From sequence record MN850622.1: DNA of 64,000 nt; one strand, written 5' to 3'. The notes beneath the pieces were generated by a model. The model ran no database searches and was not told the origin of the DNA. It worked only from the letters and a program-made list of their open reading frames with translations. The DNA comes from Escherichia phage mobillu. The translations under genes and the position numbers were made by a program. The number at the start of each line of letters is the position of its first letter. Positions within the stretch are counted from its first letter, which is position 1. Shown here piece after piece: positions 2,739-61,433 of this stretch.

Positions 2739-2746
2739 AGGTAAAC

Positions 2747-5275: not shown

Positions 5276-5278
5276 ATA
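5271..5278 (+). promoter_or_regulatory. candidate T4 late promoter (TATAAATA)
   Basis: Exact TATAAATA about 25 nt upstream of ATG 5303. Confidence 0.35.
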
Positions 5279-5302
5279 CTAATATCTAACCAAGAGGTAT
5301 AT

Positions 5303-5931: not shown

Positions 5932-6111
5932 ATGTCACGTAAAGAAAAAATTTCTAAGTTAATGTTTTTGATTGAAGAGTACGCTAATGCGGTATCTGAT
6001 TGGGAAAATGCTCATGGTTGCGAAGATGGAGACATCGACATTAACAGAGCTATGAAAAAGATGGCTGACGCCCACACCGAATTGCAAATGTATGTTAACG
6101 AGATTATGTGA
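5932..6111 (+). CDS. hypothetical small protein
   Basis: ORF 5863..6111, start placed at ATG 5932 after GAGGAG. Confidence 0.5.
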   Translation: MSRKEKISKLMFLIEEYANAVSDWENAHGCEDGDIDINRAMKKMADAHTELQMYVNEIM

Positions 6112-6118
6112 GGATATT

Positions 6119-6325
6119 ATGCTTTACGATTATACTGGAAAATCTGAAGACGGTGTACTTGAGCTTTTACCTGAAAGCGCTGAAGATGATGATATGGTGG
6201 TGATGTTTTGTAAAAATGGACCTGGGGATAAGGGATGGATTTATCTTCGTCAAGAAAATGACTTAATTGTTTTGGACCCTAAACAAGTTGAAGAACTTTA
6301 TCAACATTTAAAACACAATCGGTAG
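6119..6325 (+). CDS. hypothetical acidic protein
   Basis: ORF 6092..6325, start placed at ATG 6119. Confidence 0.5.
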   Translation: MLYDYTGKSEDGVLELLPESAEDDDMVVMFCKNGPGDKGWIYLRQENDLIVLDPKQVEELYQHLKHNR

Positions 6326-6362
6326 TTTACATCTTGGTAGGACTATGTTATAGTAGTCCTAT
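6325..6362 (+). promoter_or_regulatory. T4-type early promoter (PeSL-like)
   Basis: GTTTAC 6325-6330, TG-TTATAGTAG; inverted repeat AGGACTA/TAGTCCT. Confidence 0.5.
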
Positions 6363-6382
6363 CAAAACAAACGGAGAACAAA

Positions 6383-6493
6383 ATGAAACTTTTGCTTATC
6401 GCTTATGTTGTAGTACAATACAATTATCCGATGTTTACTTATAACATGGTAAACGGCATAGTGAATCTTATTGAAACGAGTATGGTAAAATGA
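6383..6493 (+). CDS. hypothetical micro-ORF (36 aa, hydrophobic)
   Basis: ATG with RBS ACGGAG; below the ORF-track size cutoff. Confidence 0.25.
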   Translation: MKLLLIAYVVVQYNYPMFTYNMVNGIVNLIETSMVK

Positions 6494-6669
6494 CCCGTGA
6501 ACAAGCTAATAAATTGATGGACCTTATCCGTGACTTACGTGAAGCCGATTCAGATTTGAATGATGTAGCTTATCATGCGGTAAATGATAACGAAGACTTT
6601 TATGAAAATCAGGTTGATGCTTGTCTGAATGATTTGGTGAATTTTGTTGAAACTTTAATTGGTGAATAA
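6490..6669 (+). CDS. hypothetical acidic small protein (59 aa)
   Basis: ATGA overlap with preceding micro-ORF; below ORF-track cutoff. Confidence 0.35.
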   Translation: MTREQANKLMDLIRDLREADSDLNDVAYHAVNDNEDFYENQVDACLNDLVNFVETLIGE

Positions 6670-6670
6670 T

Positions 6671-7201
6671 ATGAAAACTGTAATTGAAACAACCGAGTTG
6701 TTTGGCGATTTATGTATCGAAAAACGTGGTTATGCTTACGTTCTGACACAAGAAGATGATGCTGTTACTATTCTTCCTATGGAACTGGACAAGATTTTGA
6801 AACTCAATCCGCCCGGCCATGCATCTGTAATTAACATTGATGAAGACCTTCAAGTTCGTTTTTATCACGGTCTTTATAGTGGGGTTAATATCGAAACAGA
6901 AGATGAATGCCTTTCTATCAATAATTGGAAAACATTCGTCACTAAGGTGAAAGAATTCATAGAATCTGAAACTGCCAAAAAGGCCAAACTTCAATGGGCT
7001 AAATGCCGTAATGCTTTTATTACAAATCAGGACCACCCTGACTATACAACAGTCCTAGGCGTTAATCCTTCTTATGAAGACGGTGATGTCGTAGTTATTC
7101 GCCAAATTGATGACCTTCGTCAGCATATCATTACATTAGACAAAGATGAAGCAGTTGCTCTTAAAGCTTATCTCGATTCTATTATCCCAACTTTGAAATA
7201 A
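6671..7201 (+). CDS. hypothetical protein
   Basis: ORF 6659..7201, start at ATG 6671. Confidence 0.55.
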   Translation: MKTVIETTELFGDLCIEKRGYAYVLTQEDDAVTILPMELDKILKLNPPGHASVINIDEDLQVRFYHGLYSGVNIETEDECLSINNWKTFVTKVKEFIESETAKKAKLQWAKCRNAFITNQDHPDYTTVLGVNPSYEDGDVVVIRQIDDLRQHIITLDKDEAVALKAYLDSIIPTLK

Positions 7202-25292: not shown

Positions 25293-25518
25293 TTATGAAA
25301 TCCATCGTCATGAATTTAGTATTGGTGACGGTTATATTGGTATCGTTGAATGGACTGAGAATTACGAGGAATCAACTCCTCGTTTCTTTGGAACAATGTA
25401 TGTTACCTGTGAGTACGCACCAGGTGTTGTTATGTATGCAGAACTAGATGAATATTTTGCTGATAGAGATGGCATGTTAAAATATGTAGAGGACTTCATT
25501 CGAAGAGAATACATATGA
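25279..25518 (+). CDS. hypothetical protein
   Basis: ORF 25264..25518 begins with TTG in the track; ATG 25279 (or 25270) preferred. Confidence 0.45.
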   Translation: MTKTDYEIHRHEFSIGDGYIGIVEWTENYEESTPRFFGTMYVTCEYAPGVVMYAELDEYFADRDGMLKYVEDFIRREYI

Positions 25519-27203
25519 AATCATTTAAATTAAATCGTGTTCGTTATCAAAACATCATGTCTGTAGGTGGGAATCCTATTGATATCCAATTAGATAAAGT
25601 CCAAAAGACCTTAATCACCGGTAAAAATGGCGGTGGTAAATCTACGATGTTAGAAGCCATTACTTTCGGACTTTTCGGTAAACCATTTCGTGATGTTAAG
25701 AAAGGACAAATCATTAATAGCACGAACAAGAAAGAGCTCTTAGTTGAGCTTTGGATGGAATTCGATGATAAAAAATACTTCATTAAACGTGGCCAAAAGC
25801 CCAATATTTTCGAAATCTCCGTTGACGGTGTTCGTCTCGATGAATCTGCCAGCAGTCGTGACTTCCAAGAAGAATTTGAACGTAGCATCGGAATGTCATA
25901 CGCGTCTTTTAAACAGATCGTTGTGCTTGGGACGGCAGGGTATACCCCTTTCATGGCTCTTAGCACCCCTGCTCGTAGAAAACTTGTCGAAGACCTTTTA
26001 GAAGTCGGCACACTCGCTGAAATGGATAAAATCAATAAGTCTCAAGTTCGAGAACTTAATTCCCAGGGACAAGTTCTCGATGCCAAGAAAGATGGTATTA
26101 TCCAACAAATTAAGATTTATAACGAGAATATCGAACGTCAAAAGAAATTATCTGGTGATAATGTAGCGCGTCTACAGAATATGTATGACGACCTAGCCAA
26201 AGAAGCTCGTTCATTAAAAGCAGAAATCGAAGAAGCTAATGAGCGACTACTTAATATCGTTCTTGATGAAGACCCTACTGAGGCATTCAACAAGATAGGA
26301 CAAGAAGCATTCTTGATTAAATCTAAAATCGACTCATATAACAAAGTTATTAAGATGTATCATGATGGCGGTACATGTCCTACTTGTGCATCACAGTTGC
26401 ACCAGGGTGATCCTATTGTCTCTAAGATTACCGATAAGCTTCATGAATGTAATCACTCATTCGAGCAACTTACATGTCACAGAGATAATCTGAGTGTCCT
26501 AGTGGACGAATATAGAGCTAATGTTAAGACTAAACAGGACCTTGCATCTGATATTCGTACCAAGAAACAAGCAATGATTGCCACTATTGATAAAGCTAAG
26601 AAAGTTAAAGCTGCAATAGAGCAAGCCTCAGCAGAATTTATCGACCATGCCGATGAGATAGCTTTGCTTCAAAAAGAACTTGATAAAATCATTAAAACAA
26701 AATCAGATATCGTTCTTGAAAAATACCATCGTGGTATTATCACAGATATGTTAAAAGATTCTGGTATTAAAGGTGCTATCATTAAAAAATATGTGCCTCT
26801 GTTCAACAAGCAGATTAACCATTATCTTAAAATCATGGAAGCTGATTACGTGTTTTCTATTGACGAAGAATTCAATGAATCTATAAAATCACGTGGTCGT
26901 GAAGATTTTAGTTATGCTTCATTTAGTCAAGGTGAAAAGGCACGTATCGATATCGCATTGTTGTTTACATGGCGAGATATTGCTGAAAAGGTCTCTGGTG
27001 TTAAAATCAACACTCTGATTCTTGATGAGGTTTTTGATGGTGCTGTTGATTCTGAGGCTGTTAAGGCTATAGATACCATTCTTGGAAGTTTACAAAATAC
27101 TAATGTGTTCATTATCTCTCATCGAGACCATGACCCTCAACGTTATGGACAACATCTTCAAATGAGCAAAGTTGGACGATTTACGGTAATGACTGTTTCA
27201 TAA
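25515..27203 (+). CDS. 46: recombination nuclease subunit gp46 (Rad50/SbcC-like ATPase)
   Basis: 562 aa; Walker A GKNGGGKST, central coiled coil with CPTC zinc hook, signature FSQGEKARI, Walker B LILDEVFD. Confidence 0.9.
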   Translation: MKSFKLNRVRYQNIMSVGGNPIDIQLDKVQKTLITGKNGGGKSTMLEAITFGLFGKPFRDVKKGQIINSTNKKELLVELWMEFDDKKYFIKRGQKPNIFEISVDGVRLDESASSRDFQEEFERSIGMSYASFKQIVVLGTAGYTPFMALSTPARRKLVEDLLEVGTLAEMDKINKSQVRELNSQGQVLDAKKDGIIQQIKIYNENIERQKKLSGDNVARLQNMYDDLAKEARSLKAEIEEANERLLNIVLDEDPTEAFNKIGQEAFLIKSKIDSYNKVIKMYHDGGTCPTCASQLHQGDPIVSKITDKLHECNHSFEQLTCHRDNLSVLVDEYRANVKTKQDLASDIRTKKQAMIATIDKAKKVKAAIEQASAEFIDHADEIALLQKELDKIIKTKSDIVLEKYHRGIITDMLKDSGIKGAIIKKYVPLFNKQINHYLKIMEADYVFSIDEEFNESIKSRGREDFSYASFSQGEKARIDIALLFTWRDIAEKVSGVKINTLILDEVFDGAVDSEAVKAIDTILGSLQNTNVFIISHRDHDPQRYGQHLQMSKVGRFTVMTVS

Positions 27204-30659: not shown

Positions 30660-33371
30660 ATGAAAGAATTTTACTTAACGGTTGAACAGATTGGTGATTC
30701 AATTTTTGAACGTTACATCGATTCTAATGGCCGTGAACGTACTCGCGAAGTAGAATATAAACCATCACTGTTTGCTCATTGTCCAGAAAGTCAGGCTACG
30801 AAATATTTCGATATCTACGGTAAGCCGTGTACTCGTAAATTGTTCGCTAATATGCGTGATGCCTCCCAATGGATTAAACGCATGGAAGATATCGGACTTG
30901 AAGCACTTGGCATGGACGATTTCAAATTGGCGTATTTGTCTGACACTTATAACTATGAAATCAAATACGACCATACAAAAATTCGTGTGGCTAACTTCGA
31001 CATCGAAGTAACATCTCCGGACGGGTTCCCTGAGCCGTCACAAGCAAAACATCCGATTGATGCTATCACCCATTATGACTCAATTGACGACAGGTTCTAC
31101 GTATTTGATCTATTGAATTCTCCATATGGTAATGTGGAAGAATGGTCTATCGAAATTGCGGCTAAGCTTCAAGAACAAGGCGGTGATGAAGTTCCATCCG
31201 AAATTATCGATAAAATCATTTATATGCCGTTTGATAATGAAAAAGAATTATTGATGGAATATCTCAACTTCTGGCAACAGAAAACTCCTGTCATTTTGAC
31301 TGGATGGAACGTTGAGTCATTTGATATTCCATATGTGTATAACCGAATCAAGAATATTTTTGGCGAATCTACTGCGAAACGTTTATCGCCACATCGTAAA
31401 ACTCGTGTTAAAGTTATCGAAAACATGTATGGTTCTCGTGAAATCATTACATTGTTCGGTATCTCTGTTCTTGATTACATTGACCTTTACAAAAAATTCT
31501 CTTTTACCAATCAACCGTCGTATTCTCTGGATTACATTTCAGAATTTGAATTGAACGTTGGTAAACTGAAATATGACGGCCCTATTTCTAAGCTTCGTGA
31601 AAGCAATCACCAACGATATATTTCTTATAACATTATCGACGTGTATCGTGTATTGCAAATTGATTCTAAGCGTCAGTTCATCAACTTGAGCTTGGACATG
31701 GGTTATTATGCTAAAATTCAGATTCAATCTGTGTTTAGCCCAATTAAAACATGGGATGCTATTATTTTTAATAGCCTTAAAGAGCAGAACAAGGTGATTC
31801 CACAAGGTCGTTCTCACCCGGTTCAACCTTATCCTGGCGCTTTTGTTAAGGAACCTATTCCAAATCGATACAAATATGTAATGAGTTTCGACCTTACATC
31901 TCTGTATCCAAGTATTATTCGCCAAGTGAATATTAGCCCTGAAACAATAGCAGGAACGTTTAAAGTAGCTCCACTGCATGATTATATTAACGCAATCGCT
32001 GAACGTCCTTCAGATGTGTACAGTTGTTCTCCTAACGGCATGATGTATTATAAAGACCGTGATGGTGTAGTTCCAACTGAAATCACTAAGGTCTTTAATC
32101 AACGTAAAGAACATAAAGGTTATATGCTTGCAGCTCAACGTAATGGTGAAATAATTAAAGAGGCATTGCATAATCCTAATCTTTCTGTTGACGAACCATT
32201 AGATGTTGATTATCGTTTTGACTTCACTGACGAGATTAAAGAAAAGATTAAAAAGTTGTCTGCTAAATCTCTTAATGAAATGTTGTTTAGAGCTCAACGT
32301 ACTGAAGTTGCAGGTATGACTGCACAAATTAACCGTAAATTGCTTATCAACTCACTTTATGGTGCACTTGGCAACGTTTGGTTCCGTTATTATGATTTGC
32401 GTAATGCTACTGCAATCACAACATTCGGGCAAATGGCTTTACAGTGGATTGAACGTAAAGTTAATGAATATCTGAATGAAGTTTGTGGTACAGAAGGTGA
32501 AGCTTTCGTTCTTTATGGTGATACAGACTCTATTTACGTATCTGCTGATAAAATTATCGATAAGGTTGGTGAATCTAAATTCCGCGATACTAACCATTGG
32601 GTAGACTTCTTAGATAAGTTTGCACGTGAACGTATGGAACCAGCTATTGATAGAGGTTTCCGTGAAATGTGTGAATACATGAACAATAAACAACACTTAA
32701 TGTTCATGGACCGAGAAGCTATCGCTGGTCCTCCGCTCGGTTCTAAAGGTATTGGTGGATTCTGGACTGGCAAGAAACGTTATGCATTAAACGTGTGGGA
32801 TATGGAAGGCACTCGTTACGCCGAGCCTAAACTCAAAATCATGGGTCTAGAGACTCAGAAATCTTCGACCCCTAAAGCAGTACAGAAAGCTCTTAAAGAA
32901 TGTATTCGTCGTATGCTTCAAGAAGGTGAAGAATCATTACAAGAATATTTTAAAGAGTTTGAAAAAGAATTCCGTCAATTGAATTATATTAGCATCGCGT
33001 CGGTATCTTCTGCGAATAACATTGCTAAATATGACGTAGGTGGATTCCCGGGTCCTAAATGCCCGTTCCATATTCGTGGAATTCTGACGTATAACCGAGC
33101 TATCAAAGGTAATATTGATGCACCACAAGTTGTAGAAGGTGAAAAAGTATATGTTCTGCCTTTACGTGAAGGAAACCCATTCGGTGATAAATGTATCGCA
33201 TGGCCTTCTGGTACTGAAATCACAGATTTAATTAAAGACGATGTACTTCATTGGATGGACTACACTGTTCTCCTTGAGAAGACATTTATTAAACCGCTTG
33301 AAGGATTCACATCAGCAGCTAAACTCGATTACGAGAAGAAAGCATCTCTGTTCGATATGTTTGATTTTTGA
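30660..33371 (+). CDS. 43: DNA polymerase (family B) gp43
   Basis: 903 aa; exonuclease motif FDIEV, polymerase motifs DxxSLYPS, KxxxNSLYG, YGDTDS; N-terminus matches the RB69-type polymerase as I recall it. Confidence 0.97.
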   Translation: MKEFYLTVEQIGDSIFERYIDSNGRERTREVEYKPSLFAHCPESQATKYFDIYGKPCTRKLFANMRDASQWIKRMEDIGLEALGMDDFKLAYLSDTYNYEIKYDHTKIRVANFDIEVTSPDGFPEPSQAKHPIDAITHYDSIDDRFYVFDLLNSPYGNVEEWSIEIAAKLQEQGGDEVPSEIIDKIIYMPFDNEKELLMEYLNFWQQKTPVILTGWNVESFDIPYVYNRIKNIFGESTAKRLSPHRKTRVKVIENMYGSREIITLFGISVLDYIDLYKKFSFTNQPSYSLDYISEFELNVGKLKYDGPISKLRESNHQRYISYNIIDVYRVLQIDSKRQFINLSLDMGYYAKIQIQSVFSPIKTWDAIIFNSLKEQNKVIPQGRSHPVQPYPGAFVKEPIPNRYKYVMSFDLTSLYPSIIRQVNISPETIAGTFKVAPLHDYINAIAERPSDVYSCSPNGMMYYKDRDGVVPTEITKVFNQRKEHKGYMLAAQRNGEIIKEALHNPNLSVDEPLDVDYRFDFTDEIKEKIKKLSAKSLNEMLFRAQRTEVAGMTAQINRKLLINSLYGALGNVWFRYYDLRNATAITTFGQMALQWIERKVNEYLNEVCGTEGEAFVLYGDTDSIYVSADKIIDKVGESKFRDTNHWVDFLDKFARERMEPAIDRGFREMCEYMNNKQHLMFMDREAIAGPPLGSKGIGGFWTGKKRYALNVWDMEGTRYAEPKLKIMGLETQKSSTPKAVQKALKECIRRMLQEGEESLQEYFKEFEKEFRQLNYISIASVSSANNIAKYDVGGFPGPKCPFHIRGILTYNRAIKGNIDAPQVVEGEKVYVLPLREGNPFGDKCIAWPSGTEITDLIKDDVLHWMDYTVLLEKTFIKPLEGFTSAAKLDYEKKASLFDMFDF

Positions 33372-33411
33372 TATAATGCCAAGGACGGCCAACTAATTAA
33401 ATGAGAGAAAT

Positions 33412-34047
33412 ATGAAAACTACACCAATCACTATCGCTATTGACGCAATCGTAAAACAAGCTTCATCTCTTGCCACTATGGCTAAAGTAATTAGTCAAAA
33501 CCCTGCTCGGTATAATGCTATTCTTGAAACTCTTCGTCGCCCTGGACTGAGTAATTATGAAAGTCGTGTAATTATTACAGGTGTTGGTAAGAACGCTAAT
33601 ATCGCAACTAAAGCTTCCGAGACTTTTGCTTCACTAGGTATTCCTAGCATGTATTTGAACACTGGGCATTATTCTCATGGTGACGCAGGATTTATTGCAC
33701 CTAATGATGTATTAGTTCACATCAGCCGTTCTGGTAAGACTGAAGAAATGATAGGTGTTGCTAAACATCTTCGTATGATTCGTCCTCAGGTTAAACAGAT
33801 TCTGTTACATTGTAACCCTGACATTCCACAAGAATACGAAGCCCTTTTTGATTACTCTTTCTGTACAGGCATCGCGGTAGAGGTTGATGAGAATTCTCTG
33901 GCTCCGACCATGTCCACTACATTGTTGTTAGCGCTTATCGATACGTTTGCTATCAACCTTTCGTCTGAACGTGGATTTACCTCTAATGATTTCCTTAAGT
34001 TCCATCCAGGCGGTGCACTAGGTGCCATGTTACGAGGCGAACAATGA
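33412..34047 (+). CDS. SIS-domain sugar-phosphate isomerase (GmhA/KdsD-like)
   Basis: 211 aa; SIS signature VIITGVGKNANIA...HISRSGKTEE; single-domain size similar to phosphoheptose isomerase. Confidence 0.75.
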   Translation: MKTTPITIAIDAIVKQASSLATMAKVISQNPARYNAILETLRRPGLSNYESRVIITGVGKNANIATKASETFASLGIPSMYLNTGHYSHGDAGFIAPNDVLVHISRSGKTEEMIGVAKHLRMIRPQVKQILLHCNPDIPQEYEALFDYSFCTGIAVEVDENSLAPTMSTTLLLALIDTFAINLSSERGFTSNDFLKFHPGGALGAMLRGEQ

Positions 34048-34187
34048 AAGCAATAACAATAGGACTTTTACTATTGATGCTTGTCATGACTATCTACTGG
34101 AGCTTAACGGCTCCGGTAATGATTCCAACACTTGTAATTGGATGGATTATGATTGGTCTACAGGCAAAGTATGAATGCTTTAACTAG
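34044..34187 (+). CDS. hypothetical small membrane protein (47 aa)
   Basis: ATGA coupling with SIS gene stop; two hydrophobic segments; below ORF-track cutoff. Confidence 0.4.
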   Translation: MKAITIGLLLLMLVMTIYWSLTAPVMIPTLVIGWIMIGLQAKYECFN

Positions 34188-34228
34188 AATAGTGTACAAT
34201 ACTCCTACTTACCAATGAGGACTTCAAC

Positions 34229-35914
34229 ATGAAAAAAGCTGTTATTCTTGGTGCTGGATTGGCAACTCGTTTGTATCCAATAACGCATCATATTCCTAAG
34301 GTGCTTGTTAACTATAAACAAGACACTATTCTGAGCAATTTGTATACAATTTATTCTGACCTTGGCGCAGATGAAATTATTGTAGTAGTTCATTCAAAAT
34401 TTGCTGAAACTGTTCGAGCTTATTGTGAGCAAGAAGGGTTCAATGTGACTATTCGTACAGTTGATGAAGCGTATGGTTCTGCTTATGCTCTTGCTAAATT
34501 ACACAAAGATTTAGACGGCCATAATGTAATTGTTAACTGGTGTGATATTATTCCCGATTTTGGTTCATGGTCTTGGAATGTTAACGCAATCTATGTTAAG
34601 GGTGACGAATGTCGATATAATTTCGACGGTGAAAATATCACTAACGTAGGTTCAACAGGTGGTAATGTTGTAGGAATTTATCAGTTCAAAGACTGGGAAT
34701 TCTATATGGGTTCTACTGATGAGGAAATTCATGAATACTGCAAAGGACGTGATTTCGTAGAATTCCTTTACGGCAGCGCATTCAATAAATCAGAGCTTAT
34801 GAATATAATTGATTTAGGTGATATGCCTAAACTTGAAAAGGCTCATGAAGTTCGTGAACTTAATCGTAGTTTTAATGCAGTTGAAATTGGTGAAGAAACT
34901 GTAACTAAATTCGCATTAACCGAACAGGGACGAGCTCTTCAGAAAGATGAGATTTCGTGGTATTTGAAAGTGAAATCAGATTCAGTTCCTCAGTTAGTTT
35001 CTGTTAATGAAAATAACTTTGAAATGGAACGCATTAAAGGTAAGCCGGCATTTGAATATATTAAATCAAAATCAAGTCTTGCTCGTCCACAAATTATTGA
35101 TGCAATTTTAGATGCACTGAAATTCAGCACAGACACTTATTTTGTAAGTCCTGAAACTGTTCGTCGTGATTTCACTAAAGAATTCTATACGAAAGTTATT
35201 GATCGTTGTGAAAGCATTCAACCATTGATTGATTCATTTGGTAAAATCACACATGTGAACTACACTAAGATTGGACGTCTGAAGCCAATGCTGAAACAAG
35301 CTTTAGAACACCTTATTCGTTATCATAACCGTTCTCAGGGACAGTACTCTGTTATTCATGGTGACCCGAACTTCAGTAATACTATGATTACTGATAACGG
35401 CGAAGTCAAGTTTATCGACCCTCGTGGATATTTTGGCGAAACCAAGATTTACGGGCCAAAATTGTATGATGAAGCTAAAGTGCTTTATGCTGTTTCAGGT
35501 TATGATGAATTCAATGCTAATCCGACCTGGGGACAGTTTACTATTGATGAAACAACTTGTAATGTGACTATTAACATCAATCCATTAGTTTACAAATATG
35601 GAAAGATGAGTTCGTTTAACGAGTATCATCATTTGGCTGTAGCAATTATCTGGATTGCATTAGGTGGTTATTTCAAGAATAATCCACTTAAAGCGGTAGC
35701 CGCATATTATAAAGGTATGGAACTTCTGACTAAGCAATTACGTAACATGGGCCGTGTACTTCAAGACGGCTCTATTAGTTATGACGTAGCAGAACCTGTA
35801 ACGGCTACTCTGATTACAAAAAATCCTGGTAAATGGGTACTAACTGATAAAGAAACTGGTGTTTCCTATCGTCCAATCGGTGGCGATATCACTCATCAAT
35901 GGGAACGAATCTAA
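34229..35914 (+). CDS. bifunctional sugar-1-phosphate nucleotidyltransferase / sugar kinase (APH-choline kinase fold)
   Basis: 561 aa; N-terminal NTP-transferase signature AVILGAGLATRLYPIT..PK; C-terminal kinase motifs VIHGDPNFSNTMI and FIDPRGYFGE. Confidence 0.75.
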   Translation: MKKAVILGAGLATRLYPITHHIPKVLVNYKQDTILSNLYTIYSDLGADEIIVVVHSKFAETVRAYCEQEGFNVTIRTVDEAYGSAYALAKLHKDLDGHNVIVNWCDIIPDFGSWSWNVNAIYVKGDECRYNFDGENITNVGSTGGNVVGIYQFKDWEFYMGSTDEEIHEYCKGRDFVEFLYGSAFNKSELMNIIDLGDMPKLEKAHEVRELNRSFNAVEIGEETVTKFALTEQGRALQKDEISWYLKVKSDSVPQLVSVNENNFEMERIKGKPAFEYIKSKSSLARPQIIDAILDALKFSTDTYFVSPETVRRDFTKEFYTKVIDRCESIQPLIDSFGKITHVNYTKIGRLKPMLKQALEHLIRYHNRSQGQYSVIHGDPNFSNTMITDNGEVKFIDPRGYFGETKIYGPKLYDEAKVLYAVSGYDEFNANPTWGQFTIDETTCNVTININPLVYKYGKMSSFNEYHHLAVAIIWIALGGYFKNNPLKAVAAYYKGMELLTKQLRNMGRVLQDGSISYDVAEPVTATLITKNPGKWVLTDKETGVSYRPIGGDITHQWERI

Positions 35915-36300
35915 TGCACCGTGTAGAAAACATGCTTAATCTTTGTTTTGATGTCGATGATTGTATAACAGAGTGGAATAACAATCGTGATTACGTGAAC
36001 TTCAAACCAGACGTCGAAATGGTGTCTGCCATTAATGCCCTGTATGATGCAGGGCATACCATAACGCTTTACACTGCTCGCGGTATGAAGTCAGTAGGTC
36101 CTGGTCGTATAGCAATTGACATTCTCCCAAGTCTGATTCAGAACTTGGCAAACATTGGCTTGAAGTACCATAATTTGCTAACACATAAACCAGTATATGA
36201 TTGGATTATCGACGACAAAGCTATGCGTCCTGACGAATTCAAAGCTCTTATGAATAAAGGCGAATTCGAAACATTTAAATCATATAAACCAAATCTATAA
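35914..36300 (+). CDS. HAD-superfamily phosphatase
   Basis: 128 aa from ATG 35914 (TAATG coupling); HAD motif I FDVDDCIT near N-terminus; C-terminal WIIDDKA. Confidence 0.65.
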   Translation: MHRVENMLNLCFDVDDCITEWNNNRDYVNFKPDVEMVSAINALYDAGHTITLYTARGMKSVGPGRIAIDILPSLIQNLANIGLKYHNLLTHKPVYDWIIDDKAMRPDEFKALMNKGEFETFKSYKPNL

Positions 36301-36357
36301 TAATTTAAGTAAGACCTGCAAAAACCATCGCATCAATTAACGTGAGATGCAAAAAAA

Positions 36358-37518
36358 ATGAATACTTTTAAAATCGGAACGAATTTTGATTTAGCTCTTC
36401 TTGATAAAATCGTAGAGCTCAATAAAACTTATCCTAATAGCTTGATAAACGAAGTATACGGCTCTACAAGAGAAATGGCTTTTGTAGCAGCCAGACCTGA
36501 TTTTAGGCTTCCTGACGTTGACAAAAAGATGTTAGAAGATTACGTTAAACGTTGTAACGAATTAGGTATTTGCTTTAACTATACACTCAACACGATAAAT
36601 CCTGGTTCAAAAAGAGAACTAGTTGAGTGGAAGAAGAAAGCTATTCAGGATTATGTTCAGTATCTTTGGTCAATAGGCGTATGGCGTATTACTATCGCTA
36701 ACCCTGTTGTTATGGAAATTGTTCGTGAAGTCAATAAAGACATTGAGATTGAAGTTTCAACAATTCTACATGTCGATGCTGTAACTCAAATCAAATACTT
36801 GCATGACCAGTATAATATCAAAAAGGTCTGCTGTGGAATTCATAAGAACCGTTCAGTTTCTTTCCTGAAGCGTGCAGCAGAGTTTTGCAATAAGAACAAT
36901 ATAATATTTGAAGTTCTTGTAAATGAGTTCTGTTCTAATGCTGGTAAAGGGTATACAACACATTGTAGCTATCGTGACTCTTGCTATATTTTCCATAGTA
37001 CTGATGTTACAGCTGATGATGCTAAATCCTTAAACGGATATCCTATGCAGCACTGTATTAAAGCTCGTGATACAGACCCATTTAACTGGTTGAGAACTCG
37101 TTTTGTTCGTCCTCAAGATTTGAAACTTTATAATGATATTGGTATCACTCAATTCAAAGTTTCAGGACGTACAGGTAGCACAGACTACATTTTGAAAGTT
37201 CTTGAAGCATACGCTTCTGAAAAGTTTGAAGGTAATTTGTTAGAACTGTGGAAGCCTTTAGAGACTATTTTCACTCTTGAAAATGAGACCGAGTTTTCAC
37301 ATACGGTAAATATTGAAACCTCTTTGTTAGATGGCTTTTTAGAAAAAAGGTGGTTCAGACATCCAGATTTCGATTGTGCTAATGAAATCTGCGGGACGAC
37401 GTGTACATATTGTGAAAGATATTATAAACGTCAGTTATCTAAAAATGGGTTATCAGAAAATTCTATATCTATTATTGATATAACTAACTCTGATGACGCT
37501 TTGAGGTACCCAGAATGA
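36358..37518 (+). CDS. U32-family-like Cys-rich protein (tentative)
   Basis: 386 aa; layout YTLNTIN ... EVSTILHV ... IFEVLVNEFCSNAGKGYTTHCSY resembles U32 (PrtC/RlhA/UbiU) family; C-terminal cluster C-x4-C-x4-C-x2-C. Confidence 0.55.
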   Translation: MNTFKIGTNFDLALLDKIVELNKTYPNSLINEVYGSTREMAFVAARPDFRLPDVDKKMLEDYVKRCNELGICFNYTLNTINPGSKRELVEWKKKAIQDYVQYLWSIGVWRITIANPVVMEIVREVNKDIEIEVSTILHVDAVTQIKYLHDQYNIKKVCCGIHKNRSVSFLKRAAEFCNKNNIIFEVLVNEFCSNAGKGYTTHCSYRDSCYIFHSTDVTADDAKSLNGYPMQHCIKARDTDPFNWLRTRFVRPQDLKLYNDIGITQFKVSGRTGSTDYILKVLEAYASEKFEGNLLELWKPLETIFTLENETEFSHTVNIETSLLDGFLEKRWFRHPDFDCANEICGTTCTYCERYYKRQLSKNGLSENSISIIDITNSDDALRYPE

Positions 37519-37754
37519 TTTCTAGAAAAACTTTTAACCACCAACTTAATGAAGAGATTTTGACTATGAAAATTAACAGCAACGAACAAATTCTTAAAAA
37601 GGCCCTTATGGGCCTGTTTGAAACTAAAGCGGCTAAAGTGATTAAAGGACCTGTTCAATTGGAATACTACGCTGATGCATTTCTTCATAGTGTTCTTGGA
37701 AGTATCGATGCTGAAGCTTTACGTTATATCAACATTGTCAAGAAATTCAAATAA
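37515..37754 (+). CDS. hypothetical protein
   Basis: ORF 79 aa, ATGA overlap. Confidence 0.5.
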   Translation: MISRKTFNHQLNEEILTMKINSNEQILKKALMGLFETKAAKVIKGPVQLEYYADAFLHSVLGSIDAEALRYINIVKKFK

Positions 37755-37796
37755 GCTTTACGAATTGAGTATATAATAAATTGTATTGAGGTAAAC

Positions 37797-38513
37797 ATGG
37801 GAAAACATAACACAATGAAATATATCAAAGCCGCAGATTTTCAAACCGCATTTAAAGCAGTCAATCGTGAAATTTTAGAAAACCCGGAATTCGTAACTGA
37901 TTCTCGTATTGGACGTTGTAATGAAATTGGGTCTATGACAGTAGTTGTTGACACTCCATCATCATTCAAAATGACCGACCCACGTATTAACCGCATCTCT
38001 TATGAATACGCCGAAGATTTCTGGAAGTTTATGATTTCTGGTGGTACCAACGCAGAAGAAGCGTTTAAGGCATATCCTAATGTCGCTAAATTTATTTCTA
38101 AACCAAAATCAGATGTTTTGCCGGCGAACTTCAACACTTTCTACGGTCCTCGCATTGCGGCCCAATTACCAGCTCTTCTAAAAGAACTTAAAGAGAAGCC
38201 TAACTCCCGAAGAGTTGTGTTCCAAATTCTAGAAAGTTCTGATCAGGCTTTGCTTGATTCAGACGAAACGCTTGAATATCCATGTACTGACTCAGTGACT
38301 TATTATATTCGTGATGGTAAGCTTTATACCCACTGTCATATGCGTTCTCAGAACTGTGCTGTTGTTATGCAGTTGGATTTTTATCTCCAAGGAAAATTAC
38401 TTCATTATATCGCTAACGAATGTGGTGTAGAAGTTGGTGATTATACTCATACCATGGTAAGTGCCCATGTGTTTGAACGTGATTTTGATTATGTTAAAGG
38501 ATTCCTTGACTAA
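37797..38513 (+). CDS. 42: dCMP hydroxymethylase gp42 (thymidylate synthase family)
   Basis: 238 aa; PCTDSVTYYIRD ... HMRSQN segments correspond to T4 gp42 active-site region as I recall it. Confidence 0.8.
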   Translation: MGKHNTMKYIKAADFQTAFKAVNREILENPEFVTDSRIGRCNEIGSMTVVVDTPSSFKMTDPRINRISYEYAEDFWKFMISGGTNAEEAFKAYPNVAKFISKPKSDVLPANFNTFYGPRIAAQLPALLKELKEKPNSRRVVFQILESSDQALLDSDETLEYPCTDSVTYYIRDGKLYTHCHMRSQNCAVVMQLDFYLQGKLLHYIANECGVEVGDYTHTMVSAHVFERDFDYVKGFLD

Positions 38514-39412
38514 TGGCTATTTTCCGCGTACCAATCTTGAGTATGCGGTCTTATGAAACTGGACAGTATGCTATCCTTAAGGATGGCAACTTCCAACTTC
38601 ATTTGCACCGTGCTAATCCAGGTGATGTGATTACATATCCACGTAATGCATCTGATATTAAAGAATGCGAACGTCTTTTCCCAGAATTTAAGTTTGTTCC
38701 ATTATGGTATAAAGATAACGCGTATAACACTCGTAAATATTTCTGGTCTGAAAATGAATTTGTGGTTGATTCATTAATTGCTTATTATGATTGTGATTTT
38801 CTAATCACAGATATCACCGGATATGACGGTGCTTTTGATGTAGAATTCAATTTCAATATCACTGCAGACCCTAATAAACCACGTTTTTATATTGACGAAT
38901 TCTTAAAAACCGACATGTTGTCGGTTAATCGTTCACTTCAAACTACTGTGTTGAACGAACGTCAAAAAGAAGTGCTGGTTAACGCAGGTGCAGATGGTAA
39001 TAAGATTATCGTAACGCAGAAAGTTATACGTCCTTCCATCATGCAGCGTCTTGTAGGTGATTTGGCTCCTATTCATCTAGATGGTATTTTTCATCCATTT
39101 CGAATTAGCGACCCGTGCTATCGTTTTGAACAAGTGGTTGAATGTGCAATTCAATTAGGCCAACCGCTTTATATAACCGATCCAAATAATAGCTTCGACA
39201 GAAATAAGTATCCTGAAGAAGCGCTGATTCGAATTTTTAAACCAACTAAAACTGAGTACTATCAAATTCTTAAAGGACGTCCGAAAATTCAATATTTCGA
39301 AAATCCTGAAGAAGTATTCCATCCAGGTCTTGGTGAGTTCATCTACTTTAATGCTTTAATTTCTTCGCCGTATAATATACCTAAATATGAAGATGTCGTA
39401 ATCGAGGAATAA
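38513..39412 (+). CDS. hypothetical protein occupying the beta-glucosyltransferase locus
   Basis: 299 aa; no similarity to T4 beta-gt recognised; TAATG coupling with gene 42. Confidence 0.6.
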   Translation: MAIFRVPILSMRSYETGQYAILKDGNFQLHLHRANPGDVITYPRNASDIKECERLFPEFKFVPLWYKDNAYNTRKYFWSENEFVVDSLIAYYDCDFLITDITGYDGAFDVEFNFNITADPNKPRFYIDEFLKTDMLSVNRSLQTTVLNERQKEVLVNAGADGNKIIVTQKVIRPSIMQRLVGDLAPIHLDGIFHPFRISDPCYRFEQVVECAIQLGQPLYITDPNNSFDRNKYPEEALIRIFKPTKTEYYQILKGRPKIQYFENPEEVFHPGLGEFIYFNALISSPYNIPKYEDVVIEE

Positions 39413-39413
39413 A

Positions 39414-39962
39414 ATGGCTAAAATTATTTTAGTAGATGGCCCAGATAATGCTGGTAAAACAACTTTCATTAATGACATAATGGAAATTAGTGAAAGATAT
39501 GTAAAGATTGATTTCCCTAAACGAACAGTTGATGGGCGTTTCGATGTTAAGTCTCGAAATGAAGTTGGCTGCTTCGAAACGATGTTGAATTATTTAGACC
39601 CTACTAAGATTTATCTGTTAGACCGTGGATATATTAGTAACTGGGTTTATGGACGTATTCGACAAGATGCGGACTCGGTTCTTGACGTTTATGAACAGGA
39701 TTATGTTCGTCTTTGCCAAAACCATGATGTGTTCACAATTATTTTAACACGTAACGAAATGACTGAAAGTTTTGAAGACGACCTTATTACTTTGTCTTCA
39801 TTCGGTTTTAATACAGTCATTTCACATTTTGAAGAGTTTGCAATTCATAACAAAATCCAAACGTATCAATTACTTAATCATGATGGTGCTAACAAAGTTA
39901 TAGGATTTAATGCAAGCGAACGTAATTATTTGATTACAGAAATTATCAAATGGGCTCGTTAA
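39414..39962 (+). CDS. P-loop nucleoside/nucleotide kinase-like protein
   Basis: 182 aa; Walker A VDGPDNAGKTT; LDRGYIS resembling dNK/TMK family. Confidence 0.65.
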   Translation: MAKIILVDGPDNAGKTTFINDIMEISERYVKIDFPKRTVDGRFDVKSRNEVGCFETMLNYLDPTKIYLLDRGYISNWVYGRIRQDADSVLDVYEQDYVRLCQNHDVFTIILTRNEMTESFEDDLITLSSFGFNTVISHFEEFAIHNKIQTYQLLNHDGANKVIGFNASERNYLITEIIKWAR

Positions 39963-40060
39963 GAGCCATTTAAAGTTTTAAATGCTGTATAACCCTTAGT
40001 ATATAATCATCTTATCTTTTAAACATGAGTAAAATATAATGATGCCTATGGAAAAATACA

Positions 40061-41233
40061 ATGTCTGATTTAAAATCTCGTTTGATTAAAGCTTCTACTT
40101 CTAAAATGACTGCAGACTTGACTAAGTCTAAGCTGTTTAATAATCGCGATGAAGTCCCTACTCGTATTCCAATGTTGAATATTGCACTAGGTGGTGCACT
40201 GAATGCCGGGTTGCAATCAGGCTTGACTATTTTTGCTGCTCCTTCTAAACACTTTAAAACGTTGTTTGGACTGACCATGGTTGCAGCATATATGAAGAAA
40301 TATAAAGATGCAATCTGTTTGTTTTATGACTCAGAATTCGGTGCTTCGGAATCTTATTTTCGTTCAATGGGTGTTGATTTAGACCGTGTAGTTCATACTC
40401 CGATTCAATCGGTCGAACAACTTAAGGTTGATATGACTAATCAGCTTGACGCGATTGAACGCGGTGATAAAGTTATTATCTTTATTGACTCGATTGGTAA
40501 TACTGCATCTAAGAAAGAAACCGAAGATGCATTGAACGAGAAAGTTGTAGGTGATATGTCTCGTGCTAAGGCACTTAAATCTCTGTTCCGCATTGTGACC
40601 CCGTATCTGACTATTAAAGATATTCCGTGTGTTGCAATTAACCATACAGCAATGGAAATCGGCGGATTGTATCCTAAAGAGATTATGGGCGGTGGTACAG
40701 GTATTCTTTATTCTGCCAACACGGTATTTTTTATCTCTAAACGTCAGGTTAAAGAAGGTACAGAATTGACCGGTTATGACTTCACGTTGAAAGCAGAAAA
40801 ATCTCGCACAGTTAAAGAGAAATCTACTTTCCCGATCACGGTTAATTTTGATGGCGGTATTGACCCATTCAGTGGCTTGTTAGAAATGGCAACTGAAATT
40901 GGTTTTGTAGTTAAGCCTAAAGCTGGTTGGTATGCTCGTGAATTCCTTGACGAAGAAACAGGTGAAATGATTCGTGAAGAAAAATCATGGCGTGCTAAAG
41001 CTACTGATTGTGTAGAATTCTGGGGACCTTTGTTTAAACACAAACCTTTCCGAGATGCAATTGAAACTAAATATAAACTAGGTGCTATCTCTTCTATTAA
41101 AGAAGTTGATGACGCTGTTAACGACCTTATTAATTGCAAAGCAACAACTAAAGTTCCGGTTAAAACTTCTGATGCTCCATCTGCAGCAGATATAGAAAAC
41201 GACCTTGACGAAATGGAAGATTTCGATGAATAA
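40061..41233 (+). CDS. uvsX: recombinase UvsX (RecA-like)
   Basis: 390 aa; Walker A-like AAPSKHFKT, RecA core; matches T4 UvsX size and position. Confidence 0.9.
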   Translation: MSDLKSRLIKASTSKMTADLTKSKLFNNRDEVPTRIPMLNIALGGALNAGLQSGLTIFAAPSKHFKTLFGLTMVAAYMKKYKDAICLFYDSEFGASESYFRSMGVDLDRVVHTPIQSVEQLKVDMTNQLDAIERGDKVIIFIDSIGNTASKKETEDALNEKVVGDMSRAKALKSLFRIVTPYLTIKDIPCVAINHTAMEIGGLYPKEIMGGGTGILYSANTVFFISKRQVKEGTELTGYDFTLKAEKSRTVKEKSTFPITVNFDGGIDPFSGLLEMATEIGFVVKPKAGWYAREFLDEETGEMIREEKSWRAKATDCVEFWGPLFKHKPFRDAIETKYKLGAISSIKEVDDAVNDLINCKATTKVPVKTSDAPSAADIENDLDEMEDFDE

Positions 41234-41567
41234 TCTCGATGATTTAAATCTAGAAATCGTTGATGAATCCCCTTCTTCGGAAGGGGAAGACATTCGCAAA
41301 GAACGAGTGTTTAATGAATCTCTTAAAATTGTCCGTTCAGCAATGGAAAATGTCATTCAAGAGATTCTGATTACACTTGAAGACGGTTCCCATCATATAG
41401 TCTATATTACAAAACTAGACTGGGTTGATGGTAAAATCGTAATGGACTTTGCAGTTCTTGACCAGGACAGAAAAGCAGAACTTGCACCGCACGTTGAAAA
41501 ATGTGTTACAATGCAAGTACAACAAGCTTTTAATGAACGAACCAAGAAAAAATTTAAATTCTTTTAA
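41226..41567 (+). CDS. 40: gp40-like protein (head vertex assembly chaperone position)
   Basis: ORF 41205..41567, start placed at ATG 41226 overlapping uvsX stop; synteny uvsX-40-41. Confidence 0.55.
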   Translation: MNNLDDLNLEIVDESPSSEGEDIRKERVFNESLKIVRSAMENVIQEILITLEDGSHHIVYITKLDWVDGKIVMDFAVLDQDRKAELAPHVEKCVTMQVQQAFNERTKKKFKFF

Positions 41568-41576
41568 GGAGTTATC

Positions 41577-43019
41577 GTGGTAGAAATTATTTTGTCTCAT
41601 CTAGTATATGACCAGGCTTATTTTTCTAAGGTCTGGCCTTATATGGATTCTGAGTATTTTGAGCGTGGACCGGCAAAAAATGTCTTTAAAATTATAAAGA
41701 GCCACGTTAACGAATATAATGCAATGCCATCTATCAATGCGTTAAAGGTGGCTTTAGATAACAGTTCTTTAACTGAAGCCGAATATAAAGGAACTTCAGA
41801 CCTAATTGAAAAATTGGCTGATACTCCTGAAGACCATGAATGGTTGGTTAAAGAAACTGAGAAATATGTCCAGCAAAAAGCGATGTATAATGCTACATCC
41901 AAAATCATTGAGATTCAGTCTAATGCTGAACTACCTCCAGAACAACGTAACAAGAAAATGCCTGACGTAGGAGCTATTCCTGATATTATGCGTCAAGCAC
42001 TTTCAATTTCGTTTGATAGTTATGTTGGTCATGACTGGATGGAAGACTACGAAGCACGCTGGCTTTCTTATCTAAATAAAGCACGTAAGGTCCCGTTCAA
42101 ATTAAACATTTTGAATAAAATCACTAAAGGTGGTGCTGAAACAGGTACACTAAACGTTTTAATGGCCGGTGTTAACGTTGGTAAATCTTTAGGCCTTTGT
42201 TCACTTGCTGCAGATTATCTTCAAACAGGTCATAACGTTCTTTATATTTCTATGGAAATGGCTGAAGAAGTTTGTGCTAAGCGTATAGATGCAAACATGC
42301 TTGACGTATCACTCGATGATATCGATGATGGTAACGTATCTTATGCTGAATATAAAGCCAAGATGGAAAAATGGCGTTCAAAAACAACATTAGGACGTTT
42401 AGTAGTTAAACAGTATCCCACTGGTGGAGCTAATGCTAATACATTTCGTGCATTGCTTAATGAGTTAAAACTTAAGAAGAACTTTGTGCCATCTGTAATC
42501 ATGGTTGATTACTTAGGTATTTGTGGGTCTTGTCGTATCAGAGTTTACACTGAAAATAGCTACACATTAGTTAAAGCTATCGCAGAAGAACTTCGTGCAT
42601 TAGCAGTAGAATCTGAAACAGTTCTATGGACTGCAGCTCAAGTAGGACGGGCAGCATGGGATGCTTCGGATATGAACATGAGCGATATTGCAGAATCAGC
42701 AGGTTTACCAGCAACGGCAGATTTCATGTTGGCCGTAATTGAAACCGAAGAACTTGCACAAGCTGAACAACAACTTATCAAACAAATCAAATCACGATAC
42801 GGCGATAAGAATAAGTGGAATAAATTCCTGATGGGTGTACGTAAAGGCAACCAGAAATGGATTGAGATTGAGCAAGAAGGCATGAACACACCTAACACAG
42901 TAAATGAAAACGCAGGTGCTCAGATGCGTCAGGCAGAGGTGAATCGTACGGAACGCGTAGGTAAAGCCAAAGCAACACGTGCTGACCTAGATAGCTTAGC
43001 CAATGAGTTAAAATTTTAA
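41577..43019 (+). CDS. 41: replicative DNA helicase gp41 (DnaB-like)
   Basis: 480 aa; GTG start 41577 with RBS TAAGGAG; Walker A GVNVGKS; N-terminus MVEIILSHL.YDQAYFSKVWPYMDSEYFE matches T4 gp41 as I recall it. Confidence 0.9.
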   Translation: MVEIILSHLVYDQAYFSKVWPYMDSEYFERGPAKNVFKIIKSHVNEYNAMPSINALKVALDNSSLTEAEYKGTSDLIEKLADTPEDHEWLVKETEKYVQQKAMYNATSKIIEIQSNAELPPEQRNKKMPDVGAIPDIMRQALSISFDSYVGHDWMEDYEARWLSYLNKARKVPFKLNILNKITKGGAETGTLNVLMAGVNVGKSLGLCSLAADYLQTGHNVLYISMEMAEEVCAKRIDANMLDVSLDDIDDGNVSYAEYKAKMEKWRSKTTLGRLVVKQYPTGGANANTFRALLNELKLKKNFVPSVIMVDYLGICGSCRIRVYTENSYTLVKAIAEELRALAVESETVLWTAAQVGRAAWDASDMNMSDIAESAGLPATADFMLAVIETEELAQAEQQLIKQIKSRYGDKNKWNKFLMGVRKGNQKWIEIEQEGMNTPNTVNENAGAQMRQAEVNRTERVGKAKATRADLDSLANELKF

Positions 43020-60332: not shown

Positions 60333-61433
60333 ATGAAAGTTATGTTTATCCCATCTCGCGCAGTCCCATTTAACCCAGAACGTGTACAAGGTGGTCTTGA
60401 AGCAGTACATTTAAATGTGTTGAAATATCTTGTGTCCATCGGTGCTGATATTGATTATATCGGCTTTGATAATGACACGTTTGGTGACTGGAAGGTTAAT
60501 CATCATCCTGTTGGTCATCTGACTAAATTCAGTCTAGGTATGAGTTATACTATGGCTCGTAAGATTGTTGAACTAGCCGGCATTAATGAGTACGATTTCG
60601 TTGTTACAATGGAACCGACCAAACTAACCGTTCAGGCAATTAAAGACGCAGGTCTCTCTAAAGTTCATAAGAATTTTATGGCAACACCATTTGAACCAGT
60701 ATCTCGTGGCATTGTTCAAATTTGGGACCAGACTATTCAAATTCATAAGAACGGTGGTAAGAGTTATGCTCCTACTAAAGCCTTCCGTGAATTTGAACGC
60801 AAATATTGTTATATGACTTCAGGTCTGACTGACAAAATTGATTATGATTATTGGCGAGCAAATCCGTTGTTTGAAGCCGAAGATTATCCGGTTATTTGTT
60901 TGAATGATAAACCTGAAGTTCTTCCGGCGACTGATCTGATTATTAGTGCACAACGTTATGACACTAAAATGCGTCGTACTGATGTTGCTCTTGAAGCGAT
61001 TAAAGCACTAGGCGAAAATGGTGCAGGATACTGTCCTAGTAAATGGGCACCACCAGCTAAATATCCTGTTATTATTGATGCTCCACACAGTGAAATCATG
61101 GAACGTCTTAAAATGGCTAAAGCACTTATTAATACGTGTCCTGACACAGGTACGGTAGAGAATAGTTCTATTGAAGCCATCTCTAAAGGTGTCCCTGTAA
61201 TCCAGTTAGTTTTTAAGGATTATCCTCATGCGACATTCGAATACGACCCGGATACTGTGCGTGTAGAAATTGATTCCTCTACTCCTAAGAAAGAAGTAGT
61301 TGCGCTTTACACAAAAGCTGTATTAGAATTCACTGACACATACGAAGCTCGAGTTAAACGTGCTGAAGCAGTATGGAAGAAATATAATCGAGATGCAGTT
61401 GTTGCGATGTGGGATAAAATCTTCACAGCGTAA
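60333..61433 (+). CDS. GT-B fold glycosyltransferase (GT4-like); candidate DNA (hmC) sugar transferase
   Basis: 366 aa; N-terminal MKVMFIPSRA..GGLEAVHLNVLKYL and C-terminal ENSSIEAISKGVPVI resemble GT4 signature regions. Confidence 0.65.
   Translation: MKVMFIPSRAVPFNPERVQGGLEAVHLNVLKYLVSIGADIDYIGFDNDTFGDWKVNHHPVGHLTKFSLGMSYTMARKIVELAGINEYDFVVTMEPTKLTVQAIKDAGLSKVHKNFMATPFEPVSRGIVQIWDQTIQIHKNGGKSYAPTKAFREFERKYCYMTSGLTDKIDYDYWRANPLFEAEDYPVICLNDKPEVLPATDLIISAQRYDTKMRRTDVALEAIKALGENGAGYCPSKWAPPAKYPVIIDAPHSEIMERLKMAKALINTCPDTGTVENSSIEAISKGVPVIQLVFKDYPHATFEYDPDTVRVEIDSSTPKKEVVALYTKAVLEFTDTYEARVKRAEAVWKKYNRDAVVAMWDKIFTA

Follow-up and report, generated by a model that had tools for sequence, protein, structure and literature searches.

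Arabinosylated phage DNA and the locus of phage mobillu

DNA of phage RB69 contains mono- and di-arabinosyl-5-hydroxycytosine, the one or two arabinofuranoses being attached to 5-hydroxycytosine (5hoC) through an ether oxygen (Lee et al., NAR 2026, PMC13326640). Arabinose had been found in RB69 DNA by Thomas et al. (2018), who proposed that ORF003c is the transferase and that ORF055c and ORF053:052c are the makers of UDP-arabinose. Lee et al. (NAR 2026, PMC13326640) assigned RB69 gp46:47 as 'arabinosyltransferase 1' and gp45 as 'nucleotide kinase'; beyond this table entry gp45 has no role in their work. We analysed the counterparts of these genes in Escherichia phage mobillu, within a stretch of 64,000 nucleotides (nt) of sequence record MN850622.1 (the window): an open reading frame (ORF) for a protein of 299 amino acids (aa), here called GT1 (GT, glycosyltransferase), and an ORF for a P-loop kinase of 182 aa. 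Both ORFs are likely, in our view, to serve the pathway by which RB69-like phages hypermodify their DNA with arabinosyl-5-hydroxycytosine, one supplying the transferase step and the other the kinase step. This assignment is already published and the finding is thus known; new in the present work are a near-universal hydroxylase-GT-kinase triad in 59 related loci, natural fusions of GT and kinase, and the acidic character of the GT family.

Several other steps were characterized by Lee et al. (NAR 2026, PMC13326640). RB69 gp48, a homologue of thymidylate synthase (TS), was shown experimentally to turn dCMP into 5-hydroxy-dCMP (5hodCMP) using flavin and O2. RB69 gp159, a kinase of the T4 gp1 type, phosphorylates 5hodCMP in vitro, and the TS homologue together with gp159 suffices for the presence of 5-hydroxydeoxycytidine (5hodC) in E. 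coli DNA. The pairs RB69 gp46:47/gp45, DLP3 gp79/gp78 and RL38J1 gp215/gp214 described in the same paper are counterparts of the GT1/kinase pair of the window.

The locus belongs to the machinery by which RB69-like, Acinetobacter, Serratia, Klebsiella and many uncultured phages replace every cytosine with arabinosylated 5hoC. Restriction enzymes, DNA glycosylases and some CRISPR systems are blocked by the modified base, which also has consequences for sequencing and for the design of phage therapy.

Gene arrangement and relatives

GT1 (38513-39412, + strand), equivalent to RB69 gp47:46, is predicted to transfer the base-proximal arabinofuranose to 5hoC. The TAA codon of the upstream gene (38511-38513) shares its final A with the GT1 start codon at 38513 (gactaATGgct), so that a TAATG stop/start overlap at 38511-38515 (+ strand), read from the sequence, links the hydroxylase gene to GT1. 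The TAA of GT1 occupies 39410-39412, and one base after it, at 39414, stands the ATG of the kinase ORF (39414-39962, + strand, 182 aa), with GAGGAA ahead of it. The kinase sequence, which begins MAKIILVDGPDNAGKTT, contains the P-loop VDGPDNAGKTT; the protein, equivalent to RB69 gp45, is thymidylate kinase-like and is the predicted kinase for modified dCMP. This arrangement agrees with an earlier note, made from the sequence alone, which had listed the TAATG overlap, the 299-aa ORF and the P-loop kinase and had compared the locus with T4, where beta-gt does directly follow gene 42.

A megablast search with positions 34000-41300 gave 150 phage genomes with matches over 80% or more of that stretch; ∼30 Mosigvirus genomes, RB69 included, matched it over its full length with 98.1-98.7% identity. 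RB69 and the window have 98.3% DNA identity across 7.3 kb and identical gene order. In the RB69 record GT1 is represented by ORF047c and ORF046c, the kinase by ORF045c and the upstream gene by ORF048c. The RB69 module and the window also have the same cluster, the same predicted roles and the same structural matches (6kih for the transferase, thymidylate kinases for the kinase), the GT gene being split by a frameshift only in the RB69 GenBank record. Given the orthology with RB69 and the linkage to a 5hodCMP synthase with the Asp-to-Asn signature described below, the window carries a 5-hydroxycytosine glycosylation module. A recent record labels GT1 'glycosyltransferase' and the kinase 'thymidylate kinase'.

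Homologues of GT1 were detected in 348 phage records and homologues of the kinase in 343, with nearly the same genus counts; together with the confident structure models this argues that both are real genes rather than chance ORFs. In the RB69 record (AY303349), apparent frameshifts split ORF047c/046c (6014-6914) and ORF053c/052c (1731-3417); in the window both genes are single ORFs (299 and 561 aa). A regulatory or RNA element was also considered for the region and rejected: no tRNA or Rfam family was found in 33000-42000, and promoter and terminator scans gave no more than expected from shuffled sequence.

The gene upstream of GT1

The upstream gene (37797-38513, + strand; Pfam Thymidylat_synt, 2.3e-15), equivalent to RB69 gp48, had been taken for gene 42 in the earlier note. 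Its product is only 25% identical to T4 gp42, in contrast to 98% identity to a solved enzyme of phage HY126 (PDB 9iqc, 9ir2 and 9iqu), a dCMP 5-hydroxylase. The sequence MRSQN in this protein has Asn where MRSND of T4 gp42 has Asp; the Asp-to-Asn change is a signature of 5hodCMP synthases (Lee et al., NAR 2026, PMC13326640). Judged by its sequence, this gene does not function as a gene 42; it encodes a flavin-dependent dCMP 5-hydroxylase, a 5-hydroxy-dCMP synthase. The acceptor for the downstream transferase would therefore be 5hoC and not 5-hydroxymethylcytosine, the base assumed previously. The central idea of the note, a different transferase or accessory enzyme for an alternative modification, is in line with the published assignment, but its view of the upstream enzyme and of the acceptor base was wrong.

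In a 122-kb metagenomic phage contig (L004), a gene of the Flavodoxin_2 family (FMN-dependent reductase) is located at 4739-5293, directly 5′ of a TS homologue-GT1-kinase triad; its position fits the reported flavin dependence of the hydroxylase.

Fold and family of GT1

No Pfam or NCBIfam match to GT1 was found at E ≤ 0.1, and no GT was matched among PDB sequences either by phmmer or by hmmsearch with a profile of 70 homologues; GT1 belongs to a PHROG with function unknown. The lack of resemblance to T4 beta-gt, seen already by eye, persisted in alignments (BLASTP E 3.7; hhalign probability 0.35%). GT1 and the second glycosyltransferase of the window, GT2 (represented by HY126 9iqz/9ir0), are separate families as well (hhalign probability 0.5%). 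Because every sequence-profile route to a known family failed (Pfam, NCBIfam, phmmer, hmmsearch, and hhalign against beta-gt and against GT2), the placement of GT1 comes solely from structure prediction.

The AlphaFold2 model of GT1, built from a 70-sequence alignment, had a predicted local distance difference test (pLDDT) of 95.4 and a predicted template modelling score (pTM) of 0.90. It consists of two alpha/beta Rossmann-like domains, with seven and five strands, and a cleft between them, which is the GT-B fold. The structural matches of the model included sucrose-phosphate synthase 6kih (score 17.3), BshA (16.6), HepE (16.3), PimA (15.9), the HY126 transferase 9iqz (14.1) and T4 alpha-gt (13.1). 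T4 beta-gt, itself of the GT-B fold class, was absent among the first 60 matches. Foldseek, the check proposed earlier along with structure prediction, supported the same fold; the best matches were UDP-GlcNAc 2-epimerases and MshA, with E ∼1e-6 and template modelling (TM) scores up to 0.63.

Twenty-six residues are invariant in the GT1 family and, in the predicted secondary structure, appear in both domains to be grouped in loops where strands end and helices begin. They include MRS 11-13, KDGN 23-26, R33 and R74, as well as the C-terminal domain residues FxPFRxxD 193-200, TxPN 222-225, K246 and HPG 270-272, which appear at strand ends and helix N-termini. Such positions are those of active-site residues in GT-B clefts and support the transferase reading. 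No E-x7-E motif was found in GT1: after H270 the sequence reads HPGLGEFIYFNALISS, without a second Glu eight residues on.

The retaining GT4-type GT-B enzymes compared with it (6kih, BshA 6n1x, PimA 2gej and MshA 3c4q) are 8-12% identical to GT1. Unlike them, GT1 matches neither Pfam Glycos_transf_1 nor Glyco_trans_4, lacks E-x7-E and has a shorter C-terminal domain of five strands. From the model we infer that GT1 belongs to the GT-B glycosyltransferases as a minimal and highly divergent form, for which a small family of its own is the best description. When 1.84 billion representative proteins were searched with a profile, only 231 members were retrieved. We rejected an origin in bacteria as well as a link to a defence system, as the genomes of 185,579 bacterial species (one per species) yielded just one locus, located on a phage-like contig of 167 kb. 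With T4 beta-gt (GT63) GT1 has in common its slot, directly after a thymidylate-synthase-family gene and ahead of uvsX, and, according to the predicted role of GT1, the general job of moving a sugar from a UDP-sugar to the C5 hydroxyl of a modified cytosine.

The kinase

The family profile of the kinase aligned its G-x-D-x-x-GKT P-loop and FPKR with the vaccinia and yeast thymidylate kinases (TMKs), and its DRGY with DRY of the yeast enzyme. The P-loop Asp, the FPxR and DR motifs and the P-loop Lys and Thr are invariant in 24 homologues. The structure model is confident and has the TMK fold with the P-loop Asp, FPxR and DR-x-Y motifs, in agreement with the earlier description of the protein as deoxynucleotide kinase/TMK-like. 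The kinase also matched phrog_761, 'thymidylate kinase', with 2.4e-45. Still, it falls below the curated TMK thresholds, with no PF02223 match at E ≤ 0.1 and 16 bits for TIGR00041 against a cut-off of 83, and hhalign of the family with E. coli Tmk aligned the P-loop only. The family has an invariant Asn where P-loops of type I TMKs have Arg or Lys. Thus, compared with type I TMKs (vaccinia 2v54, yeast 1tmk, human 1e2d), the kinase is shorter (182 aa), has Asn for the P-loop Arg/Lys and is sub-threshold in Pfam and NCBIfam.

The protein is probably a divergent TMK-type deoxynucleotide kinase, and an active one, since neither the catalytic P-loop Lys and Thr nor the DR motif varies. A substrate derived from cytosine is implied by the strict linkage of the kinase to a module that modifies cytosine. 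As predicted, it would resemble T4 gp1 (1dek), the equivalent of RB69 gp159, in being a phage dNMP kinase that feeds modified dCMP into replication. We also considered a DNA 5-hydroxyl kinase, by analogy with the DNA kinases acting on 5-hydroxymethyldeoxyuridine (5-hmdU), and set this candidate aside: O-glycosylation from a UDP-sugar has no need for phosphate activation, and the mononucleotide-binding motifs of TMKs are invariant.

Conservation of the triad and gene fusions

The genomic context was analysed in 59 related GT1 loci, taken from metagenomic and viral collections. Of these, 54 contain a TS homologue, which in 49 loci immediately precedes GT1, the two genes overlapping by a median of 4 nt. 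The kinase gene was found in 49 loci: in 37 it immediately follows GT1, and in every one of these the two genes overlap or abut; in 11 it stands elsewhere in the locus, upstream. The Asn signature occurs in 57 of the 58 GT1-linked TS homologues, the window's own counted. The hydroxylase-GT-kinase triad is therefore near-universal in this set.

Shewanella phage Thanatos has the order TS-GT1-kinase-U32 (U32, a Peptidase_U32-family gene); its GT1 and kinase are 48% and 44% identical to the window proteins, and the GT1 homologue is its only GT. Thanatos DNA was reported to be mono-arabinosylated (Lee et al., NAR 2026, PMC13326640). The fold of GT1, its strict coupling to 5-hydroxylating TS homologues and its status as the sole transferase in Thanatos point to GT1 as the first transferase.

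Two natural GT1-kinase fusions were found among the representative proteins, P0255 and P0285 (contigs L073 and L072). P0255 has a Pfam Thymidylate_kin match at residues 372-519 (E 1.2e-4); for P0285, hhalign against the profile of the kinase family gave a probability of 73% (E 3e-5). The contigs are short metagenomic pieces of 1.8 and 3.6 kb, and assembly artefacts are possible.

At least seven further representatives (P0167, P0175, P0178, P0193, P0195, P0262 and P0251) have an N-terminal extension of ∼150-190 residues fused to GT1. HAD-phosphatase-like DxDG motifs are present in the three extensions that were read; a Pfam HAD match was obtained for one only and was weak.

Proposed mechanism and alternative explanations

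In the proposed mechanism, the hydroxylase would make 5hodCMP from dCMP, the TMK-type kinase would turn 5hodCMP into the diphosphate, and the modified dCTP would fully replace dCTP at replication. GT1 would bind UDP-arabinofuranose (UDP-Araf), the product of the upstream genes, in its C-terminal Rossmann domain and the 5hoC acceptor in its N-terminal domain, and would form the base-proximal alpha-Araf-O-C5 ether-linked glycoside. It would be most parsimonious for GT1 to act on newly replicated DNA, as in T4; the unlinked GT2 (60333-61433) would then add the second arabinose on DNA. A DNA-level acceptor for the first sugar is favoured by the T4 precedent and the gp159 data, though we put the chances of this step at about even.

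Several observations weigh against the proposed roles. No sequence signature of the GT4, GT63 or GT72 families was found in GT1. The GT1 family is acidic, with a median isoelectric point (pI) of 5.2 and a net charge of −10, as against pI 9.05 of the DNA-binding T4 beta-gt. In the accessible literature neither transferase activity of GT1 nor any substrate of the kinase has been demonstrated. Moreover, purified DLP3 gp79, which is homologous to GT1, showed no activity on 5hoC-DNA when given UDP-Araf or UDP-arabinopyranose (UDP-Arap), and the purified DLP3 transferases were each inactive alone on 5hoC-DNA (Lee et al., NAR 2026, PMC13326640). UDP-xylose pyrophosphorylase activity was reported for TH1_063, the GT1 homologue of Thanatos. 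Finally, gp159 already handles 5hodCMP, and a TMK-like kinase is therefore not obviously needed at that step.

The failure of the first-step transferase on 5hoC-DNA and the conservation of a second dNMP kinase would both be explained if the first sugar were added before replication. GT1 would then arabinosylate free 5hodCMP, and the TMK-like kinase would be dedicated to converting the bulky 5-Araf-O-dCMP, which a gp1-type kinase would be unable to handle, into the diphosphate; the polymerase would build in the sugar-bearing dCTP, leaving only the second arabinose to be added on DNA. The gene order hydroxylase-GT1-kinase is the order of steps in such a pathway, with overlap or abutment of GT1 and kinase in 37 loci and of TS homologue and GT1 in 49. 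Yet adjacency alone proves nothing, because T4 beta-gt, also placed directly after its gene 42, acts on DNA, and in 11 loci the kinase is not adjacent to GT1. Physical union of GT1 and kinase in P0255 and P0285 fits the same order of steps, although such fusions are known from the two short metagenomic contigs only. The acidity of the GT1 family points in this direction too, and avoiding free 5hoC would be advantageous, since in DNA this base is a mutagenic lesion excised by host Nth and Nei. On the other hand, gp159 would compete for 5hodCMP, yet unglycosylated 5hoC has not been reported in virion DNA. To our knowledge, all phage DNA glycosylation characterized so far, such as that by T4 alpha- and beta-gt, is post-replicative, and pre-replicative glycosylation of a nucleobase would have no natural precedent. 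Lee et al. (NAR 2026, PMC13326640) state that their data cannot separate the mononucleotide from DNA as acceptor of the first arabinose. On balance we rate nucleotide-level addition as possible but rather unlikely. The answer would extend or overturn the T4 paradigm for this class of modifications.

Two other activities could be ascribed to GT1 itself; we hold each of them to be highly improbable. In a published assay His-tagged TH1_063 with UTP and xylose-1-phosphate gave a UDP-xylose peak, and TH1_063 is a true GT1 homologue (48% identical over its full length); read literally, this would make GT1 a sugar-1-phosphate uridylyltransferase (UDP-pentose pyrophosphorylase). The modelled fold of GT1, however, is GT-B and not that of a nucleotidyltransferase, and given the 48% identity TH1_063 should have the GT-B transferase fold as well; besides, the cluster already has an NTP_transferase-domain enzyme whose HY126 homologue has reported UDP-arabinose pyrophosphorylase activity. 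An E. coli uridylyltransferase co-purifying with the tagged protein would be a simple alternative source of the peak. The gene for TH1_063 is located at 25460-26362 of the Thanatos sequence (L066), and its reported activity may come from such a host enzyme. The second activity is that of a GT-B-fold UDP-sugar 2-epimerase-like enzyme remodelling the donor sugar. It is suggested by the best Foldseek E-values of GT1, 1e-06 to 1e-05, being to UDP-GlcNAc 2-epimerases and by the top Foldseek match of the RL38J1 counterpart, again an epimerase (Lee et al., NAR 2026, PMC13326640).

As for the kinase, annotators write thymidylate kinase, and its TMK fold and motifs would suit an ordinary dTMP kinase; a non-catalytic partner that activates GT1 is conceivable too, as DLP3 gp76 and gp77 are mutually required for activity (PMC13326640). 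In either case the protein would have nothing to do with phosphorylation of modified dCMP. We find this improbable: the kinase occurs only with GT1 and the hydroxylase module and not across T4-like phages generally, and the invariant P-loop Lys and Thr and DR motif argue for an active enzyme. Furthermore, dTMP is already covered by T4-type gp1.

The U32 protein and the chorismate mutase slot

The ORF at 36358-37518 (+ strand; RB69 gp50) encodes a Peptidase_U32-family protein (Pfam PF01136, 7e-11). The U32 proteins RlhA, TrhP and UbiU/V are O2-independent, prephenate-dependent hydroxylases, and RlhA makes 5-hydroxycytidine in rRNA; in the E. coli annotation RlhA is named for this role. In alignments, Cys 203, 209 and 233 of the window's protein coincide with conserved Cys of UbiU, TrhP and RlhA, and the phage proteins have an additional invariant four-Cys motif at the C terminus. 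Identity of the U32 protein is 80% or more in all 221 phage records, an unusual degree of conservation; none of the Acinetobacter phages having GT1 carries it. Its relatives in the loci analysed are at L067:4501-5903 and L066:26927-28317 and in L055/L071 and L072.

In Klebsiella phage PWKp16, Thanatos and many other relatives, the gene next after U32 is a chorismate mutase scoring above the Pfam threshold. In the window this slot is taken by an ORF for 79 aa (37515-37754, + strand; RB69 ORF049c; phrog_8601, function unknown), which overlaps the U32 stop codon; it neither matched CM_2 nor resembled the chorismate mutase of PWKp16, and some relatives have both genes. Three contigs that are not T4-like have the order kinase-GT1-U32, with a PolIII-alpha gene directly after in two, and a TS homologue was not detected in the sequence read from these contigs (15.8 kb for one of them). 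One of the GT1-kinase fusions is directly followed by a U32 gene.

The aligned Cys residues, the chorismate mutase neighbour and the loci where U32 stands beside GT1 and kinase without a TS homologue suggest that U32 is an O2-independent, prephenate-dependent cytosine-5 hydroxylase, an alternative to the TS homologue in the same pathway. If so, it would open an oxygen-independent route to 5hoC in anaerobic hosts, with the chorismate mutase after U32 in relatives, not in the window. In the literature the gene is listed only as 'sugar or heterocycle reductase' (Lee et al., NAR 2026, PMC13326640), and no link between U32, prephenate and phage DNA was found in the accessible literature.

Other genes of the pathway

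The conversion of ribulose-5-phosphate into UDP-D-arabinofuranose by the genes upstream of the hydroxylase was shown by others. In the window, the arabinose-5-phosphate isomerase (33412-34047, + strand; RB69 gp55) was assigned from the literature and from position and annotation in RB69 and in phage NRG-P0074. The ORF at 34229-35914 (+ strand; RB69 gp53:52, the AfhE analogue) is assigned in the literature to a bifunctional sugar kinase/UDP-arabinose pyrophosphorylase that makes the UDP-Araf donor; its product has an N-terminal Pfam NTP_transferase domain and weak C-terminal matches to APH-like kinases, and UDP-arabinose pyrophosphorylase activity was reported for the HY126 homologue. A HAD-type phosphatase (35899-36300, + strand; RB69 gp51, the AfhF analogue; phrog_1238) is assigned in the literature to the step from arabinofuranose-1,5-bisphosphate to Araf-1-phosphate.

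GT2 (60333-61433, + strand, 366 aa), a GT4-like glycosyltransferase homologous to RB69 ORF003c, is proposed in the literature as the second arabinosyltransferase, acting on DNA. It is virtually identical (E 4e-247) to the solved 'phage HY126 glycosyltransferase' 9iqz/9ir0; 9iqz, of 366 aa, is named 'glycosyltransferase subfamily 4-like N-terminal domain-containing protein' in PDB. The GT2 gene sits 21 kb from the GT1-kinase locus and is unlinked to the hydroxylase.

In the close relative NRG-P0074 (L002), a homing endonuclease gene (3400-4161) is located between the genes for the UDP-arabinose synthase and the HAD phosphatase. The record of this phage probably mislabels the synthase of 561 aa, which it calls 'dCMP deaminase'.

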